Counted from the stretch's first letter, positions 32,327-49,247 are shown. The stretch: DNA of 64,000 bases from an uncultured Chloroflexia bacterium (GCA_963765765.1 CAVXYC010000023.1:419927-483926); one strand, 5' to 3'. Translations and numbers: made by a program. The notes: generated by a model from the sequence alone, not told the origin.

Positions 32327-32436
32327 GATGGCCTCCTCGTCGCGTGGTGGCTTGTCCAGTGAGCTTAGCGTAATAGAGAGCGATCCAGCGCTCCCAGTGG
32401 TGGATATTTAGGAATAGGAACTACCTTCGAGGCCCT

Positions 32437-32464
32437 CGTTCCGATAACCTCCATTATCGGCCCG
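32437..32464 (+). repeat. dif-like site 1
   Basis: CGTTCCGATAA-CCTCCA-TTATCGGCCCG. Confidence 0.75.
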
Positions 32465-32518
32465 TGTCTGCCTAGGGGCTCAGCGAAATAGGGGAGATTG
32501 ATCGAGCGAGCTCACTCG

Positions 32519-33515
32519 CTACTGGATGAGTTCGGTGGCCTGAGCGAGGACAGACTGCGGGATGGTCATGCCCAAGTCCCTGTGCGGCCTTGAGATTGAT
32601 CACGAAGTCGAAGGTCGTTGGCTCTTCGACGGGGAGATCGGCCGGTTGGCCCCTTTGAGGATGCTGTCCACGTAGGCGGCGGCGCGCTGGTAGATCACGG
32701 CGTAGTTGGGCCCGTAGGTCGCGAGCCCGCCCAGATCGGTGAACTCGCGATGCTCGTAGAACGCCGCCAGCCGATGCTGCCCGCCAGCTTCGACGACCCG
32801 AGTCGATAGGTGAGGATCGGCGCGGCTGACCGATGGCACCAGCAGCGCGTCAGCACCCCAGTCGTCCGCCGCCGTGAAGGCGCCGGCGAAATGGTCGGCC
32901 GTTCGCGCCGGCACCACCGCACCTGCTGCCCCAGGGTCTGGGCCGCCGCCTCGAAGTTCGCGAGCCGCGGCCCTGTCACTGGACTGTCGGGGTTGGCCAG
33001 GACGGCGACGCGGGAGGCCGTGGGGACGACCTCCTTCAGCCGCTCCATCCGCTTCATGTCGGTGTCATCGCCCGAGGTGCTCAAAGCCGGTGACGTTCCC
33101 GCCCGGCCGCGCGAGACTGGCGACCAGGCCGCTCCGACGAGGTCGGGGACCGCGGCGGCAACGATCGGGATGGTGCTGGTGGCCGGCTTGGCGGCGAGGC
33201 TCGCCGGGCCGCCTATCGCCACGAGGAGATCGGGCTGCAGGTCGACCAGCTCGGCCGCGAGCCCGGGAGGCGCTCGATCTGGCCCTCGGAGAAGCGGTAC
33301 TCGATGTGGATGTTGCTGCCCCTCGCTCGTAGCCGTGCTCGCGCAGCCCCACGGAGGAAGTCGTCGCCCGGTGCGCGGGGGCCAGGAAGCCGATGCGCGG
33401 CATCCTCGCCGTCCGCTGACCCGGCGCCGACAGGACCCCGCAGCCGGCGAGCAGGCTGAGGCCGGTGAGACCAAGGCTGGCGCGCAGGAAGTCTCGACGA
33501 TTCCACGGACTCCAT
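32519..33515 (-). CDS. ABC_sub_bind substrate-binding protein, copy 2 (multiple frameshifts)
   Basis: RRDFLRASLGL, ASLARPGGNVTG, GGLATYGPN, YVDSILKGA; homologous to 37843-38849. Confidence 0.8.
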
Positions 33516-33655
33516 AGCGGCCAGTATAGACCCGGTGGCTTGAGCCCACAATCGGACCATGCACCCACCGCGGTCGGTGCTCGGCCAGACAACGGAGCCG
33601 ATCCAGAAAAGGATCTCTCACGCCCCTCACGGCGCACGCTCCGCGTTTTGAAACA

Positions 33656-33683
33656 AGTTCCGATAACCCGCCTTATCGAACCA
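33656..33683 (+). repeat. dif-like site 2
   Basis: AGTTCCGATAA-CCCGCC-TTATCGAACCA. Confidence 0.75.
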
Positions 33684-33746
33684 TCACCTCCACACTTTGG
33701 TCTCATCCACACGCCAGGCGATTCTGTCAATTCGACAGAGCAGCGT

Positions 33747-34787
33747 CTAGAAGAACACCTCGGCGAGACCGTAAAATTCTGCGTCCACACGTTTGGTGCC
33801 GGCGACAGATCGGAGGTCCACTGGTGTGACATGCTGCCCCTTAACCGCCACCATGACGCCGAAGTGGCCCTCCCGAATCAAATCAACGGCGGCCACGCCC
33901 ACACGGGTCGCCCAGATGCGGTCCAGTGCCGTCGGGGACCCGCCGCGCTGGAGATGTCCGAGGACTGTGACCCGCGCCTCAAATCCGGTGCGCTGTTCAA
34001 TCAGCCGGGCGAGCGTATCACCGACGCCCCGCCGATCCAGGCGGACATGGCCGAACGCATCGGCTTCAGATCCGGCATCCTGCGAGGCGAGCTCGGCCAG
34101 CTCAAGCCCTTCGCACACCACAATGATGCTGAAGTCCTTCCCCTGTTGCCGGCGATCCTGGAGGTGCGTGCAGATGGTGTCAAGGTTCGTCGCCACCTCC
34201 GGCACCACGATGAGGTCGGCGCCACCAGCCAGCCCACCGGCGACAGCCACCCAGCCGGAGTCACGCCCCATTACCTCCACCACAAGGACTCGATGATGGG
34301 CAGTGGCGGTGGTGTGGAGTCGGTCCAGTGCGTCCGCCACGATCTGAACGGCGGTGTAGAAACCGATACAGTAGTCGGTTTCGGTCAGGTCATTGTCGAC
34401 GGTCTTGGGCACCCCGACGACCTTGCATCCGAGCTCTGATAGACGAGCCGCTACCGACAACGTATCATCGCCGCCGATCGCAACGAGTGCGTCGATGTTC
34501 ACGCGACGCAGATTCTCAAGAACCTGCTGGAGGTCTTCGGGCCGCTTGAGTGGATTGGTGCGCGACGTTCCCAGGATGGTACCGCCGATATGCAAGATGC
34601 CAGAAACCACGCGCGGGGTCAGTGGTTCCGTATCGCCCGAGTCGAGCAGGCCAGCCCAGCCGTTGCGAACCCCGAGCACGGAATAGCCGTATTGAAAGGA
34701 CCTTCGCGCCACGGCTCGAATCGCGGCATTGAGCCCCGGGGCATCCCCCCCGCCTGTCAAGATGCCAATGTTCAATGTGATCTCCAA
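33747..34787 (-). CDS. pfkA: 6-phosphofructokinase, probably PPi-dependent
   Basis: TGGGDAPGLNAAIR, GGTILGTSR, GGDDT and PKTVDND (Asp104/Lys124-type residues associated with PPi use), VMGR, LGHLQRGG. Confidence 0.92.
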   Translation of the reverse strand: MEITLNIGILTGGGDAPGLNAAIRAVARRSFQYGYSVLGVRNGWAGLLDSGDTEPLTPRVVSGILHIGGTILGTSRTNPLKRPEDLQQVLENLRRVNIDALVAIGGDDTLSVAARLSELGCKVVGVPKTVDNDLTETDYCIGFYTAVQIVADALDRLHTTATAHHRVLVVEVMGRDSGWVAVAGGLAGGADLIVVPEVATNLDTICTHLQDRRQQGKDFSIIVVCEGLELAELASQDAGSEADAFGHVRLDRRGVGDTLARLIEQRTGFEARVTVLGHLQRGGSPTALDRIWATRVGVAAVDLIREGHFGVMVAVKGQHVTPVDLRSVAGTKRVDAEFYGLAEVFF

Positions 34788-35293
34788 AACGCTCTCGGTG
34801 CGCCCAGGAATACGCTGGGCCGCTCACAGTGTCAAACGGAGGTGTTCGCCAGGGCACAATGAGATCAGACCGAGAGCCCATTGCGGCGAGTGGAGGAAGT
34901 TAGCACACAGAAACCTGTCGCAGGGAATCAACCTGCGCGCCTCGTCACGGAGATATTCCCGTTTCGACGGTGATGATTGAATCTTCGTGAACAGATGGAG
35001 ATTCTAGACGGATACCCAGGGTTGATCCCAGCGCTTATGAATTCATGCGCCAAGAGGAGACCCGTGAGAGTAGATGGCTTACACAACGGTTCAAAAACCC
35101 CGTGCTACTCCTCATCTTGAGCTGAGCGGATCTGCGATGCTCGCCAAGTGGACCTTCACTATCGGTCGGACGCCCCAACATTCGACTTCTGCTGGTTGCC
35201 ACGCTTAGACAGGCCCTGTTTTCCTCCTGAGGCTTTAGATCTGCCGCAGGCTGCTAAGCCAGGCTGGGGCCTACCGGCTCATCGCCTCCACCC

Positions 35294-35387
35294 AGTTCCT
35301 GTAATCGCCATTCTCGGAACCGTCACCATCCGATAATCCGCCTTATCAGACAGTTCGCAAGTAGCCCTAATCCCCATTAACAGGCGA
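35294..35387 (+). repeat. Cluster of dif-like sites 3a/3b/3c
   Basis: AGTTCCTGTAA-TCGCCA-TTCTCGGAACC (35294), CCATCCGATAA-TCCGCC-TTATCAGACAG (35326), degenerate AGTAGCCCTAA-TCCCCA-TTAACAGGCGA (35360). Confidence 0.7.
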
Positions 35388-35745
35388 TGGCGTCAGGTCG
35401 ATGAGAGCTCGGTCGGATCAAATCGCTGGAGCATGCGCTGCACCTGCCCGTAGTGCTGTTCTTCGAGCACCGCCTCTTCGTCGATGCGCACCGCGGTGGC
35501 CTCGTTGCCGCGGTCTCCTCACCAGGCGCTGTCGTGTCGCCGCGGAGCACCTATCAAGAAACGGACTGAGTCCTCGCCTGCCGAGCAGTCAAGCGGACCG
35601 GTGGTAGTCACTCCTTCGGTCCACTCCATCGGGCCCCCGACATCCGCCAGTAACCGGTCGGGGCTCTTCGCTATCCGGCCGGCCTCGGTGGGTATACTCT
35701 AAGCCGGCACTGCCGAGCCCTAGATAGAGGTTGTTCCCGATCGTG

Positions 35746-36096
35746 ATGTTGATACGCGTGCTCGCTCTCGCGCTCCTGGCGCTGCCGCTCATGCTGGCGT
35801 CCCCCGTGGCGCAGGCACAGACCAGCCAGTGCACCGGGCAGTTCGCCGCCCTTGAAGCGACCATCCAGGGTGCCGAATCCCTGAACAAGAGGACCCGGGC
35901 GAGTTTCCTGGGTAAGGCGCAGGATGCCCAGGCGAAGCTCGCCGCGGGCAAGTCGGCGGATGCCGCCCGAAAGCTCGACGATATCAAGAGCTCGCTCGCG
36001 CAGCTCGAGCAGGCGGGCAAGGTCAGCTCGACCGACGCCGCGGCGATTCGCGCGGCGACCGATGCCGCCCTGGGGTGCGTGACACCCAGTAGCTGA
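35746..36096 (+). CDS. Small secreted alpha-helical protein (FIMAH-like)
   Basis: Signal peptide ending AQA, two Cys, amphipathic helices, followed by terminator. Confidence 0.7.
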   Translation: MLIRVLALALLALPLMLASPVAQAQTSQCTGQFAALEATIQGAESLNKRTRASFLGKAQDAQAKLAAGKSADAARKLDDIKSSLAQLEQAGKVSSTDAAAIRAATDAALGCVTPSS

Positions 36097-36120
36097 CGTC
36101 CAGCGACTGACGAAACGGAG

Positions 36121-36148
36121 AGAAGGCCCGCTTCGGCGGGTTTCTTCA
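36121..36148 (+). terminator. Intrinsic terminator
   Basis: AGAAGGCCCGC-TTCG-GCGGGTTTCTT. Confidence 0.75.
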
Positions 36149-36235
36149 TCGCGCCCGCTTTCAGCCCCTGGATGGAGCGGCACTTCCTGCACCGCTGATG
36201 GCTCACCGCGCTCGTTACCATCTCCCTGCGAGTCC

Positions 36236-36294
36236 GGTTCCTGTAATCCCCATTCCCGGGAACCCGCAATCCGATAATCCCTATTATCGGCCGA
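36236..36294 (+). repeat. Paired dif-like sites 4a/4b
   Basis: GGTTCCTGTAA-TCCCCA-TTCCCGGGAAC (36236) and CAATCCGATAA-TCCCTA-TTATCGGCCGA (36267). Confidence 0.75.
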
Positions 36295-36343
36295 CCCGCT
36301 AAGCTTGAGCCCCGCTGCCATAGCGATGTAGCCCAGAGGTTTC

Positions 36344-36856
36344 ATGGCCAGGGAGTATCGATCCCCGAGCAGAGGAGGATGCGACCATGGCGCAGGGAAC
36401 GTCACCGACGAGGAACTTGCCGCACTCATTCAGCGCACTGCGGAAGCCGCCAAGGCCTATATCCGTGGGGATATGCGCACCTACTTCACGCTGATTCGGC
36501 ACGGGGACGACTACACGCTCATGTCACCGTTCGGCGGAGAACCGACACGCGGCTTCGACACCTCGCCCGAGCGCCTCGAAGCCCTGGAGCGCTACTTTCA
36601 GAACGGCGAAGCGGAACTGGAGGTGGTGCAGACCTACACGTCCGGCGATCTGGTCGTGCTGGTGGTGATCGAACGGCAGCATGGCGAGGTCGGTGGACTG
36701 CCGGACCAGGACTGGTCGCTGCGCGTGACCTTGGTCTTTCGGCGTGACGGATCGGAGTGGCGGCAGGTGCATCGGCATGCCGACCCGCTGGTCCATGGCA
36801 TCAGCCTGGAGCAACTCGCGGCGCTCGCTCGCGGAGCGGATGACCCGGTACGCTGA
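36344..36856 (+). CDS. SnoaL/NTF2-like (DUF4440-type) protein
   Basis: YTLMSPFGG, SGDLVVLVVIER, WSLRVTLVFRRDGSEWRQVHRHADPL; true start probably ATG 36388 (RBS GGAGG) with an indel. Confidence 0.8.
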   Translation: MAREYRSPSRGGCDHGAGNVTDEELAALIQRTAEAAKAYIRGDMRTYFTLIRHGDDYTLMSPFGGEPTRGFDTSPERLEALERYFQNGEAELEVVQTYTSGDLVVLVVIERQHGEVGGLPDQDWSLRVTLVFRRDGSEWRQVHRHADPLVHGISLEQLAALARGADDPVR

Positions 36857-36914
36857 CACGTTCCCGGTCCTGGCTGAGGCGACCCACGTCATCCCGTCAT
36901 CACCGGCGCGTCAA

Positions 36915-36942
36915 CGTTCCGATAACCCCCATTATCAGAATG
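36915..36942 (+). repeat. dif-like site 5
   Basis: CGTTCCGATAA-CCCCCA-TTATCAGAATG. Confidence 0.75.
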
Positions 36943-36966
36943 AAAGCCCACTAGTTCGGTTGTTGA

Positions 36967-37548
36967 TCAGCGGGATAATAGGTACAGATGTGAACACCAG
37001 TTCCGCTTATGGTCGTCTTGGCTAGTCGAAGTGGGCGCGCATTCCCATCGTCGGGGAACAGGCGCTTGCCCCCCAAGCAGTATCGGCTCGATCATCAATC
37101 GATACTCGTCGACAAGGTCGTGCTCGATGAGCGCTTTGACCAAGCTGGCGCTCCCCATAACCTGCAGTCCGCCCTCCTTCACGCCTACGTGGATCCCGTA
37201 CAGCGCCAATCGCATCTTGAGGCGGCAGCAAGGTGGAAACTTCCCAGTTGAGATCGCCCTGCCCTAGCGTACGGGAGGCAAGATACTTGGGGATTGCATT
37301 CGATCTGCAAATGAATCGCCCGGCCCGCTCGGGCCACGCTGCAGCCATGATCTGCCAGGTGCGACGACCGAAAAGCAGCGCCTCGGTTCCGTCCATGACT
37401 TCATAGGGACCGGTCCCATCGTGTACGGATCGAAATATTGCGTGGACAGACCGCCGTGAGCGAAGCCGCCGTCCGGATCATCCTGTGGCTGACCTGGCGC
37501 CTGAACTACACCGTCCAAGCTCATGAAGTCGCTAACAATAAGGCGCAT
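36967..37548 (-). pseudogene. Dihydrofolate reductase/RibD C-terminal family protein, several frameshifts
   Basis: MRLIVSDFMSLDGVVQAPG, ALLFGRRTWQ, GSASLVKALIEHDLVDEYRLMIEPILLG in three frames. Confidence 0.8.
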
Positions 37549-37742
37549 CTCGATGCTCCCTACAGCCAAGAGTCAACGCTGATGGAGTGCTCGCTGCAAG
37601 AGCTGTACCGTCATTCGGTGAGGCGAGGACGGACTAGTGCGTCCCTTTTCCCTTTGAGCGAGCGCCAAGCCTAGATGTGGGACTGCCCCAAGCGGGAGCT
37701 CTTAGCGCAGTGTCGACACGCGCGGAGATCCCCAGGAGTAGA

Positions 37743-37789
37743 GCCTCGTTCCGATAAGCCTCGTTCCGATAACCCTCATTATCGGCCGT
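37743..37789 (+). repeat. dif-like site 6 with tandemly duplicated left arm
   Basis: GCCTCGTTCCGATAA x2, then CCCTCA-TTATCGGCCGT. Confidence 0.78.
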
Positions 37790-37842
37790 GCCTGCCTGGG
37801 GGCTCTGCGAAAGAGGGGAGTTTGCGCGAGCGAGGTCACTCG

Positions 37843-38849
37843 CTACTGGATGATCTCGGTGGCCTGCGGCAGGACCGACTGCGGGATGGTCAGCCCAAGC
37901 GCCTGCGCGGTCTTGAGGTTGATCACGAAGTCGAAAGTCGTGGGCTGCTCGAACGGCATATCGGCAGGGTTGGCGCCCTTGAGGATCCTATCCACGTAGG
38001 CAGCGGCACCCTGGTAGATCTCGGTATAGTTTGGCCCGTAGCTCGCGAGCCCGCCCACATCGGTGAAATCACTGTGTTCGTAGAACGCCGCAGCCGGTGC
38101 TGGGCCGCCAGCTCGACGACCCGAGTGGGGTAACTGGTGGCAGGGGTACCCGATGGCACCAGCAGCGCGTCGGCATCCCAGTCGACCGCCGCTGCAAAGG
38201 CGCCGATGAGATCATCGGCCGTCCGCGCCGGCACCAGTCGCACCTGTTGCCCGAGGGCCTGGGCTGCCGCCTCGAAGCTCGCTAGGCGCGGCCCTGTCGT
38301 TACACCGTTGGGGTTGGCCAGGATGGCAACGCGGGAGGCAGTGGGGACCACCTCCTTCAGCCGCTCCATGCGCTTCATGTCGGTGCCATAGCCTATGGTG
38401 CTCAGCCCGGTGACGTTCCCGCCCGGCCGCGCGAGACTGGCGACCAGGCCGCTCCCGACCGGGTCAATGACCACGGCAACGATCGGGATGGTGCTGGTGG
38501 CCTGCTTGGCGGCGAGGCTCGCCGCGGGATCTGTCGTCACGAGGACATCGAGCTGCAAGTCGACTAGCTCGACGCCGAGCGCCGGCAACCGGTTGTTGTC
38601 ACTGTCCGCGAAGCGGTACTCGATGTGGATGTTCCTTCCGTCCTCGTAGCCGTGCTCGCGCAGGCCACGGAGAAAGTCCTCGATCGGGCCCGCCGCACCT
38701 TCGCGTGTGCGGTTGGTCAGGAAGCCAATCCGCGGCGTCCTCGCTGTCCCCCGACCCGGCGCCGACACGACCCCGCGACCGGCGAGCAGGCTCAGGCCGG
38801 TGAGGCCAAGGCCAGCGCGCAGAAATTCGCGACGACTCGACGGGTCCAT
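37843..38849 (-). CDS. ABC_sub_bind substrate-binding protein, copy 3 (one frameshift near 38090)
   Basis: SRREFLRAGLGL, GYEDGRNIHIEYRF, ASLARPGGNVTGLS, YVDRILKGANPADMPFEQPTTFDFVINLKTA. Confidence 0.88.
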
Positions 38850-38983
38850 GGCGGCCAGTATAAATCTGAGCCCGCCGATCGAACCGTTCACCCCACCGCG
38901 GTCAGCGATCGGCCAGGCAACGGAGCCGATCCAGAAAGGGATCTCTCGCGCCCTCCCCGGCGCCCGCTCCGCGTTTTGAAACA

Positions 38984-39011
38984 GGGTCCGATAACCCGCC
39001 TTCCCAGACGG
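38984..39011 (+). repeat. dif-like site 7
   Basis: GGGTCCGATAA-CCCGCC-TTCCCAGACGG; extra half-site TTATCGGACCA at 39078. Confidence 0.68.
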
Positions 39012-39433
39012 TTCTCTCCCCCAGGCTGATCTCAATTCGCCGATTTCCATCGTCCAGATAGTTGCCCGCGGACAGGTTTATCGGACCATGTTTACCGGGT
39101 TCACAGTTCACTTCGCGTAGCGCCCGTCAATGTCAGGTCAAGACAATAGCACGGGGATTCGACGGACGTCCCATCGCGGACCAATGCGCGCTCGATAGCG
39201 CTGACACGATCTCGCGCTTCTGGGGTGGACCCCTTCCCAATCAGTTGTTGCTCCGGTACCTCCCTGTTACCATGGAAGCCGCCTGGATCGGACCGCTTTT
39301 GGCAGCCACAGACCATCATGCCGGCGCTCGAGTCGGCACACACTGCTGCCGCATCTTCACTCGGAAGCGTGGGAACATTACCGCCTAGAGATACGGTCGC
39401 TCGGGCCGCCAGCGTCGAATTGGAGATGAGAGC

Positions 39434-48139: not shown

Positions 48140-48706
48140 AGCTCACATGTCCGTAGACGTCGCTCGATTCGATCCTCCGCAAGCCTCTGCCCTCCAGAAG
48201 ACGGCGGAGGCTGCACATCCCACCATGATGGCGAGCATCCGGACCTGGCACCCGAACCAGTAACGCAGGGCGCTGGAGTGGGAGGCAGCCGAACCGACCT
48301 ACCGAGACCTGTGGCAGAAGGGTCCGGGTCGAACCGGTGGCGATTGGGAGGATGCCGAGCCGGGCTATCGCTACGGGGTCGAGCGTGCCATGGATGAAGA
48401 CTTACAAGGGCATAGCTGGAAGCAGGTCGAAGGTGACCTGAGCAGCGGCTTTACTGACTGGGCCAAGCGGCACGGATACGACGTGCGTTGGATGACCTGG
48501 AGCACATGCGGGAACATGTGCAGGATGTGTGGGATGAACTGGCCGGCCCGCTCCGGATCACGCGGCTGCGTCGACGGGCGTCATAGCGCGGCTGACGCGC
48601 CACTGTACTCTACTTGCGCACTCTGTTCGAGCCGCGCAGCATCAATAGCTCCGACGCGCAACTTCAGCGTCCTTCTCGCTTATTGGGCAATAGTCATCCC
48701 GATGCA

Positions 48707-49137
48707 TATTGCCCGGTGATAAACCGGAACTCATCGCAGCACTTCCATTTCCGGATAACCGTTTCGCTGTAATCACCCCGGGCCGACCCTTGTTCTCAGC
48801 AGACGACCGAGCTTGAGATCGGACGAGCGCGTCATTGTCAAGTCCGCAGGGGGACCCAAAGTGGTTCCAATAACCCTGTTCAACCTGACTTATCTGGACC
48901 AGGTGACATTAGGAAACACGTTCTATTGCCCGGTGATAAACCGGTACCCATCGCAGCACTTCCATTCCGGGTAAGCGTTTCGCTGTAATGACGCCGGGCC
49001 AACCCTCTTTCTCAGCAGACGGCCGGGCTTTGATCGGACGAGTGCGTCATTGTCAATTCTGCAGGGGACCCAAAGTGGTTCGATGACCGTGTTCAAACTG
49101 ACTTATCTGGAACCAGGTGACAATAGGAAACACGTTC
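48707..49137. repeat. Diverged non-coding tandem duplication (217 bp + 214 bp)
   Basis: Both units run TATTGCCCGGTGATAAACCGG ... GGAAACACGTTC (48707-48923, 48924-49137). Confidence 0.9.
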
Positions 49138-49247
49138 GAGTGACTGCGGGAGGTTCTGATATCGAGGGATCAGCGGAACCAGCCGGGCTGTGATCAGGAG
49201 CAGGGATCGCTTGTTGCGACAAGCCGTGGCCCGTCCGGGCGACTCGG

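Follow-up and report, generated by a model that had tools for sequence, protein, structure and literature searches.

What sets the ends of a gene module that occurs twice in one stretch of bacterial DNA, and by what means could it have been copied there? We address this question in a 64-kb stretch from an uncultured Chloroflexia bacterium (GCA_963765765.1, CAVXYC010000023.1), hereafter the window, which corresponds to G000:C23:419927-483926 in a genome of 6.5 Mb and 33 contigs (G000). Coordinates refer to the window unless they are prefixed by a contig (C), locus (L), or genome (G) label. The module carries a gene of the PF04392 (ABC_sub_bind) family of substrate-binding proteins and is bounded on both sides by a 28-bp palindromic site that we call T1. 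It belongs to a system of chromosomal gene modules in multiple arrays, which are bounded by directional dif-type sites and tied by comparison across genomes to an accessory Xer-like recombinase. We lean toward the view that T1 is the crossover site of this recombinase family, and that modules excise and reinsert in the manner of integron cassettes or the dif modules of Acinetobacter.

The original prediction held that the segments at 32434-33674 and 37759-39002 are homologous and that their homology starts and stops at dif-like sites, and alignment bears out both statements. A global alignment from site to site of copy A (32437-33683) and copy B (37762-39011) yields 83.4% identity over 1226 aligned columns, with 46 gap columns. 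When both regions are aligned in MAFFT with about 500 bp of flanking DNA, identity jumps up at CCTCGTTCCGATAA (32434 and 37759) and drops after TCCGATAACCCGCCTT (33674 and 39002), and homology halts at the sites. Many substitutions and 1-bp indels separate the copies, which are thus not an assembly echo, as had been argued. The prediction also took the sequence outside the sites to be unrelated, and the 500-bp flanks are indeed only as similar as unrelated DNA (42.5% on the left and 40.2% on the right). That description fails in one respect, as the DNA to the right of copy B, which does not resemble the right flank of copy A, is a degenerate copy of a conserved array-end element. Because the array in the window ends in a second inverted repeat (T2, described below) and this degenerate cap, the DNA in question is not random. 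The right boundary of copy B had been read as a half site; it is instead a recurrent variant with the right arm TTCCCAG, which is found at three further places (C1:191288, C32:227970, and C32:296454).

The segment from site to site also behaves as a unit of duplication and rearrangement elsewhere in the genome, as had been proposed. There are four copies of the binding-protein module, namely, copies A and B, C27:45972-47320, and C1:191288-192543, which are pairwise 83 to 86% identical and have different neighbors. In a site-centered listing, the module leader (TTTTGAAACAGGGT, followed at the site by CCGATAA) abuts seven sites, so that other PF04392 copies with the same leader also bear the motif, and the module tail (cc(c)gtgcctgcctaggggctcagcg) abuts six. 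On the opposite side of these sites lies either unrelated DNA or another flank family. An all-versus-all BLAST comparison of the 600-bp flanks of 38 sites generalizes this pattern: flank families extend up to the site and then end, and left and right families are freely combined. At C1:192520, for example, the 3' end of one binding-protein subfamily meets the tail of a different one, and the same tail adjoins unique DNA at C23:452367.

T1 has the consensus CGTTCCGATAA-CCCCCA-TTATCGGAACG, which we derived as a position weight matrix (PWM) from 28 good sites. Two mutually palindromic 11-bp arms, perfect over 7 to 10 bp, flank an asymmetric C-rich 6-bp center, and the module boundaries thus share the 28-bp geometry of the Acinetobacter type. 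The window contains 15 matches to CCGATAA-N6-TTATC with at most two mismatches, against 1.74 expected and a maximum of 7 in 100 shuffles; across the genome, the simple pattern has 38 and 32 matches on the two strands, compared with 3 and 4 for the reversed pattern. A PWM census at a threshold of at least 14 bits returned 69 strand hits in the genome and none in the reversed genome. With strands merged, the total is 48 sites, including nine with a 5- or 7-nt C-run spacer, and these sites form about 12 arrays on at least 10 contigs with modules of 0.7 to 4.5 kb. The array in the window comprises nine sites of one polarity, seven good and two degenerate (35294 and 36236), which frame six modules (Table 1). 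Neighboring sites less than 5 kb apart have equal spacer polarity in 26 of 26 pairs, irrespective of the strand of the intervening genes. Such uniformity is expected from serial site-specific insertion and is not expected from operators or repetitive extragenic palindromic (REP) elements.

The polarity bears directly on two other explanations of T1. Under the first, the sites would be regulatory or structural palindromes, such as operators, terminators, or nucleoid-protein sites, and the copies would stem from ordinary duplication and homologous recombination. The intergenic position of T1, the terminator-like score of site 2, the age of the module copies, and the overlap of T2 with a -10-like box upstream of recombinase genes would all suit this explanation. 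We nevertheless consider it quite unlikely, since equal polarity is kept whichever strand the genes are on, unrelated genes are bounded by one type of site, homology breaks inside the 28 bp, and orthologous gene families in relatives lack the site. Most T1 sites, moreover, have an A/T-rich stem with no U-tract.

Under the second, T1 would be a selfish repeat of the REP, bacterial interspersed mosaic element, or miniature inverted-repeat transposable element type, spread, for example, by a REP-associated HUH transposase, and the modules would simply be the DNA between insertions. T1 is a short palindrome with dozens of copies in one genome only, and this genome has three Y1_Tnp genes. None of the three adjoins T1, however, and REP elements usually occur in both orientations and as inverted pairs, whereas every one of the neighboring T1 pairs is direct. 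Whole 1.2-kb modules with a conserved leader and tail recur at different loci, and in other organisms T1 is linked to the gene of a tyrosine recombinase. We therefore regard a selfish repeat as very improbable, and we rejected the assignment of T1 to REPs and their REP-associated tyrosine transposases (RAYTs) on the grounds of its uniform polarity and the lack of a Y1_Tnp gene near T1. Separately, a different long hairpin-type palindrome, which shares the words TCCGATAA and TTATCG, is present at G000:C23:350176-350203 and C18:136909-136936. Some 400 bp separate its copy at C23:350176 from a match to Y1_Tnp (HUH transposase), with which it may form a REP/RAYT pair.

The ends of the arrays carry a second conserved feature. 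T2 consists of the T1 arms separated by a spacer of about 14 nt (GGTTCCAGATAA-N14-GGTTATCGGAACC), and it trails the last T1 of nine arrays or solo sites, always on one side and starting 66 to 77 nt after the T1 start. An alignment of seven ends shows that about 190 bp of further conserved noncoding DNA follows T2, giving a cap element of about 230 to 260 bp. Rfam returned no matches in the window or at six site-bearing loci, and thus the cap is not a curated RNA family. Nine arrays capped by T1-T2 lack a recombinase gene. The window also contains two orphan cap copies 10 kb from the array (48690-49150), the second of which is followed by a badly degenerate T1-like palindrome.

The same T1-T2 composite recurs upstream of a recombinase gene. 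Among the 21 Phage_integrase matches in the genome, the Xer-like gene at C30:93979-94931 adjoins an array. A canonical T1 (C30:95082) and then a degenerate T1 follow the array there; a T2-like inverted repeat comes about 37 nt farther on, and the gene lies about 60 nt beyond this repeat. This integron-like layout, in which an array of one orientation stands beside a recombinase gene and a primary site, is present only at the C30 locus. The product has SAM-like and catalytic domains, with RHR-Y residues visible in its C-terminal half, and intact homologs bear PF02899 and PF00589 in a protein of about 300 amino acids (aa). The best NCBIfam matches of its C-terminal half are XerC with 162 bits, XerA with 161, and XerD with 151, all below the cutoffs (335 for XerC and 330 for XerD), and the protein reaches 79.6 bits on the integron-integrase model TIGR02249, whose cutoff is 265. 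Judged by these scores, it is Xer-like and is neither XerC nor XerD.

Homologs that are 43 to 87% identical occur in G001, G029, G064, G088 (three copies), G097, and G217 and on two metagenome contigs. The family is patchy, as 7 of 401 sampled genomes of the phylum, G000 included, have a member at an E value of at most 1e-45, and it is very common in soil metagenomes, with 1361 protein clusters at an E value of at most 1e-40 among 8000 scored candidates, mostly on short contigs. We compared the nine other homolog loci, eight of which have upstream DNA; the third G088 copy begins at a contig end. Six of the eight (G064, G088 twice, G097, L048, and L049) have a T1-type core with a spacer of 6 to 7 nt, then 37 to 45 nt, and then T2 with a spacer of 13 to 16 nt, although the core in L049 is weak. 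The left arm of T2 overlaps a TATAAT-like box upstream of six homologs, which makes at least T2 look like an operator. Upstream of the G217 homolog there is T2 only, and the 290 bp available in G001 contain remnants only. The arms vary symmetrically among the loci (GATAA/TTATC, GAGAA/TTCTC, and CTATAA/TTATTC), and in the G064 core, TTCCGATAA-CGATGC-TTATCGGAA, the arms are identical to those of the G000 arrays. We assign T1 and T2 to this enzyme family mainly because the composite is kept across proteins that are 43 to 69% identical. Elsewhere, there is about one T1 per recombinase copy (one site in G064, and three sites for three copies in G088), which marks the 48 sites in G000 as an expansion. 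The homologs are surrounded by insertion sequence fragments, toxin-antitoxin genes, a restriction enzyme, and a relaxase-like gene. A small protein of 110 to 143 aa with a conserved Cys/His pattern follows the recombinase in both G001 and G000 (L001:5658-6089).

Phage-type integrases also occur near the sites, at distances of 0.9 to 1.3 kb from T1 on C20 and C1; in G029, one is located 2 kb from a T1-T2. The positions are L002:3292-4445, with sites at L002:5706 and 6908; L003:6027-7159, with a site at L003:5139; and L016:3-422, with T1-T2 at about 2475-2580. The C20 and C1 integrases are 45% identical over their N-terminal 99 residues, and the G029 fragment amounts to an 18-residue match only. 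No T1 lies on the far side of the C20 or C1 integrase gene, so use of T1 by these two enzymes is not demonstrated, and phage-type integrases may be considered a minor possibility as T1 users. On C20, a binding-protein module is located between the integrase and prophage-like genes, including a putative small terminase subunit.

The distribution of T1 outside this genome bears on the possibility that the sites are read by a housekeeping enzyme instead. At one mismatch or less, T1 has 24 hits on each strand in G000 and 0 to 3 hits in each of 40 relatives. The exact canonical T1 was found in 185,579 species genomes, G000 left out, as three single hits, all in unrelated alphaproteobacterial metagenome-assembled genomes (L034, L035, and L036). 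A T1-like site, TCCGAGAA-GATACA-TTCTCGGA, is present once per genome, between convergent genes, in 11 of 11 sampled genomes of g93, another genus of the phylum. Read as TCCGAGAA-TGTATC-TTCTCGGA in G222 (L058:3095-3132) and G338 (L059:3093-3130), it has 7 to 8 more palindromic bases, and these outer bases differ among species and yet remain complementary through compensating changes. A single-copy site of this kind is suggestive of a chromosomal dif, with a hairpin as the alternative. The dif of Frankia alni, as quoted in PMC3025954, includes the arm CCGATAA, as T1 does. With the 11-6-11 geometry, the Frankia arm, and the g93 site taken together, dif-like is a fair label for T1, and this part of the original prediction stands.

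These observations lend some weight to the possibility that the arrays are true dif modules, in which T1 would represent extra copies of the genome's own dimer-resolution site, moved by a housekeeping Xer enzyme encoded on C29 in the way proposed for the pdif modules of Acinetobacter, with the C30 enzyme a bystander that has only the type of site in common with its paralog. The sampled g93 genomes gave no accessory-recombinase hit, so such arms are probably read by a housekeeping enzyme of the phylum; a XerD-like gene is present on C29 of G000; the arm is shared with F. alni; and most arrays have no recombinase gene nearby. Several results point the other way, and we judge this explanation to be unlikely, if the most serious of the alternatives. 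The true dif of G000 was not located: a scan with F. alni-type dif arms gave no convincing site, and the single candidate, C28:190939-190962 (TGACATTCTGCAAATTATGTCAAC), which is kept in G001 with a seemingly compensating change, was rejected as it lies inside a conserved 430-aa gene. Two genomes of the same family, G001 (92% complete) and G005 (97% complete, six contigs), lack a T1-like site at one mismatch or less. The design of the T1-T2 cap is specifically the one seen upstream of accessory recombinase genes; no T1-like palindrome is found upstream of the housekeeping xer gene on C29, and a further Xer-like gene on C10 has a different inverted repeat. Finally, the outer palindromic flanks in g93, with their compensating changes, would also suit a hairpin or terminator.

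Our preferred reading, that T1 is the crossover site of the accessory family, can be laid out as a sequence of steps. T1 would be the core site of a Xer-family tyrosine recombinase, with the inverted arms of about 10 to 11 bp binding a dimer and the asymmetric 6-bp crossover region giving the site its direction. The stretch between two direct T1 repeats would constitute a module of one or a few genes. Recombination between the two T1 sites of a module would release a circle carrying one T1, and this circle would become integrated at any other T1 with which it recombined; successive insertions would then build arrays of one polarity with mosaic junctions. The likely catalyst is the accessory recombinase of C30, working in trans, as the T1-T2 composite stands upstream of its gene and those of most of its homologs. 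T1-T2 would serve as a primary, attI-like site, with T2 doubling as an operator over the -10 box of the recombinase gene. While array anatomy, site census, polarity, mosaic flanks, and the link between recombinase genes and T1-T2 were computed directly, we infer from them the binding, cleavage, excision, and insertion as well as the identity of the acting enzyme.

A number of observations weigh against this reading. Any module movement must be old, as the copies are only 83 to 86% identical. No excised or alternative junction was seen in three public runs, whose reads amount to short pieces of relatives: the best run contained 0.10 of the sampled words, the pieces were mostly 88 to 95% alike with none spanning a site, and the few "joints" in read-derived pieces have sides shorter than 31 nt, so the reads give no evidence either way. 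The recombinase gene adjoins only 1 of about 12 arrays and is split by a frameshift in the assembly, and the degenerate core beside it (GGTCTCATAA-CGCTTC-TTCTGCGAACC) deviates from the canonical array arms. Its ortholog in the same-genus genome G001 (L022:95-1174, G001:C647), which is 87% identical, has an in-frame TAG, and G001 has no T1 at one mismatch or less even though this ortholog is present. The G029 homolog locus has neither T1 nor T2 upstream. The housekeeping XerD-like enzyme of C29, with 268.6 bits to XerD and 30% identity to the accessory family, could act instead. The strand call of each T1 depends on the spacer, as the site is nearly palindromic, and the 5- or 7-nt spacers are possibly homopolymer errors of the assembly. 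Pseudogene calls are likewise unsafe because the assembly may contain indel errors, and a promoter read by eye in the binding-protein module (TTGTGG-17-TATACT) was not supported by a promoter scan. Separately, a comparison with G001 offered no readable syntenic empty site, as the genes flanking the window are on different short G001 contigs; in this comparison, the LigB-like flanking gene had a closer counterpart within G000, on contig C2.

The cargo of the arrays is varied. The T1 system is not confined to the binding protein, since phosphofructokinase, SnoaL-like, and other genes are also carried in the window, and arrays elsewhere in the genome contain methyltransferases, cytochrome bd oxidase subunits I and II, an arsenic-type set (two LMWPc phosphatases and an MIP channel), an AurF-like gene with an extracytoplasmic function (ECF) sigma factor, and further PF04392 genes. 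The association with PF04392 is strong all the same, and the suggested enrichment of the motif beside these genes was recovered: a PF04392 match is no more than 450 bp away from 23 of the 48 sites, where 0.45 would be expected and 2000 random draws gave at most 5. Conversely, 20 of 34 PF04392 loci have a T1 within 450 bp, and 14 do not. The PF04392 genes of relatives align to the module in the coding region only and stand in tight tandem rows, with stop overlapping start; neither the T1 site nor the module tail is present in the rows examined. The expansion of PF04392 thus predates the sites and is independent of them. The original prediction had proposed that a mobile site-to-site segment could help explain the many ABC_sub_bind genes that lack permease or ATPase partners. 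The segment as a unit is upheld, and the explanation of the orphan genes is not supported in the form stated, given the loci without T1, the site-free rows of relatives, and the variety of the cargo.

Single frameshifts split many genes near the arrays (L005:12514-14518, L005:11162-12087, L002:3292-4445, L003:6027-7159, and L001:5977-6931). The genes affected encode PhoX, an ECF sigma factor, the two phage-type integrases, and the Xer-like recombinase, while an aspartokinase and other housekeeping genes are intact. These splits represent either assembly indel errors in repeated DNA or real decay.

The array in the window is set out site by site in Table 1. Tandem double sites, in which a degenerate T1 lies 3 to 12 bp from a good one, occur here at 35294-35353 and 36236-36294 and also at G000:C30:95040-95110. 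Simple excision and insertion do not explain them; each could represent a module that has been emptied or a site of cooperative binding. Just before a complete T1, at 37745-37759 and at G000:C30:97342, the left arm is partially duplicated, either on its own or together with the spacer, and these duplications are possible footprints of aberrant strand exchange.

Table 1. Sites, genes, and cap elements of the T1 array in the window
Feature	Position	Strand	Basis or remark
T1 site 1 (CGTTCCGATAA CCTCCA TTATCGGCCCG)	32437..32464	+	PWM 41.2 bits; left end of array, left boundary of copy A
PF04392 substrate-binding-protein gene, copy A, module 1	32519..33515	-	PF04392 match C23:452906-453181; several 1-bp indels break the frame
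T1 site 2 (AGTTCCGATAA CCCGCC TTATCGAACCA)	33656..33683	+	PWM 35.5 bits; right boundary of copy A, homology stops inside
Phosphofructokinase gene, module 2, intact, 346 aa	33747..34787	-	Pfam PF00365, E 3e-106
Degenerate T1 (AGTTCCTGTAATCGCCATTCTCGGAACC), 4 bp ahead of site 3, tandem double site	35294..35321	+	PWM 28.0 bits
T1 site 3	35326..35353	+	PWM 30.9 bits; pattern match
121-aa open reading frame (ORF), module 3, hydrophobic N terminus, no Pfam family	35731..36096	+	ORF call, Pfam scan
Degenerate T1, 3 bp ahead of site 4, second tandem double site	36236..36263	+	PWM 19.2 bits
T1 site 4	36267..36294	+	PWM 31.6 bits
SnoaL-like protein gene, module 4, 170 aa	36344..36856	+	Pfam PF13474, E 4e-9
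T1 site 5	36915..36942	+	PWM 45.7 bits
RibD_C-type (dihydrofolate-reductase-like) gene fragments, module 5	36967..37569	-	PF01872 match on 36967-37215; split ORFs
15-bp left-arm duplicate (CCTCGTTCCGATAAG), directly ahead of site 6	37745..37759	+	Read from sequence
T1 site 6	37762..37789	+	PWM 37.8 bits; left boundary of copy B
PF04392 substrate-binding-protein gene, copy B, module 6	37843..38849	-	PF04392 matches C23:457778-458002 and 458059-458601; one frameshift
T1 site 7, variant right arm (GGGTCCGATAA CCCGCC TTCCCAGACGG)	38984..39011	+	PWM 24.7 bits; last site of array
T2 inverted repeat (TCCAGATA-N-GGTTTATCGGACC), spacer about 14 nt, start +69 nt from site 7 start	39053..39088	+	Aligned with six other array ends
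Degenerate copy of array-cap element, noncoding	39053..39330	+	Alignment
Two tandem orphan cap copies, T2 at 48863-48898, no intact T1	48690..49150	-	Sequence comparison

Several known systems resemble these arrays in part. Four reports on the dif modules of Acinetobacter plasmids and chromosomes (PMC6449649, PMC7399989, PMC13141974, and PMC12907356) describe gene modules that have 28-bp Xer-type sites of 11-6-11 geometry at their ends, carry no recombinase, recur in different contexts, and stand in rows. The likeness to T1 extends to the site geometry, the logic of the module, the appearance of one module in different contexts, and the rows of modules. The Acinetobacter pdif sites are asymmetric XerC/XerD sites of alternating orientation that depend on the housekeeping XerCD. 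In contrast, the T1 arms are symmetric, which suggests a single recombinase, neighboring sites are always direct, arrays are capped by T1-T2, and an accessory recombinase gene bears the same composite. The cargo, moreover, is metabolic, and the host is an uncultured soil bacterium of high GC content.

Integrons share with the present system same-polarity arrays of small gene units, one array located by a tyrosine recombinase gene with a core and an accessory site upstream, and other arrays without an enzyme gene, comparable to attC clusters that lack an integrase. The attC sites are hairpins of 57 to 141 nt, long imperfect palindromes with R''/L''-L'/R' boxes, and IntI has an integron-specific extra domain. 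Here, by contrast, the sites are simple 28-bp duplex-type palindromes, there is neither attC nor IntI, and genes are carried on either strand. In single-recombinase Xer systems such as XerS/difSL, the recombinase gene is linked to its own dif-like site (PMC2731167). The gene-linked site and palindromic arms recall XerS/difSL and XerH/difH, although each of those housekeeping systems has a single site per chromosome, whereas the present family is patchy, lies amid mobile-element genes, and has 48 sites in this genome. Integrative mobile elements exploiting Xer (CTX-phi, TLC-phi, and the gonococcal island) similarly have dif-like sites flanking Xer-inserted DNA and tandem arrays at one locus. 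They differ in being phages or islands at a single chromosomal dif, as opposed to gene modules in about 12 arrays on many contigs. Our literature search found such arrays described only for Acinetobacter, which is not proof of absence, and subscription journals lay outside its coverage.

To our knowledge, many soil phyla have few integrons or none, and we know of site-bounded dif modules in print almost exclusively from Acinetobacter plasmids. More tentatively, and as a proposal that we hold to be quite possible though short of probable, the arrays would reflect genome-wide, integron-like gene capture on dif-type duplex sites. The recombinase would normally hold one T1-T2 at its own promoter and would here have seeded about 12 capped arrays with about 35 promoter-bearing modules, dispersing orphan binding-protein and metabolic genes. 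Taken as a whole, the analysis offers a concrete, testable model in which single genes of uncultured, high-GC soil bacteria could be copied, stacked, and exchanged with no need for transposases. It defines a candidate enzyme-site pair, in which a recombinase of about 300 aa is matched with a 28-bp core and an accessory site, and it provides a partial explanation for the dispersal of some orphan solute-binding-protein genes in this genome. If the gene-capture proposal is true, Xer-site cassette arrays could be a widespread class of gene-shuffling system that is undescribed outside Acinetobacter in the literature searched.

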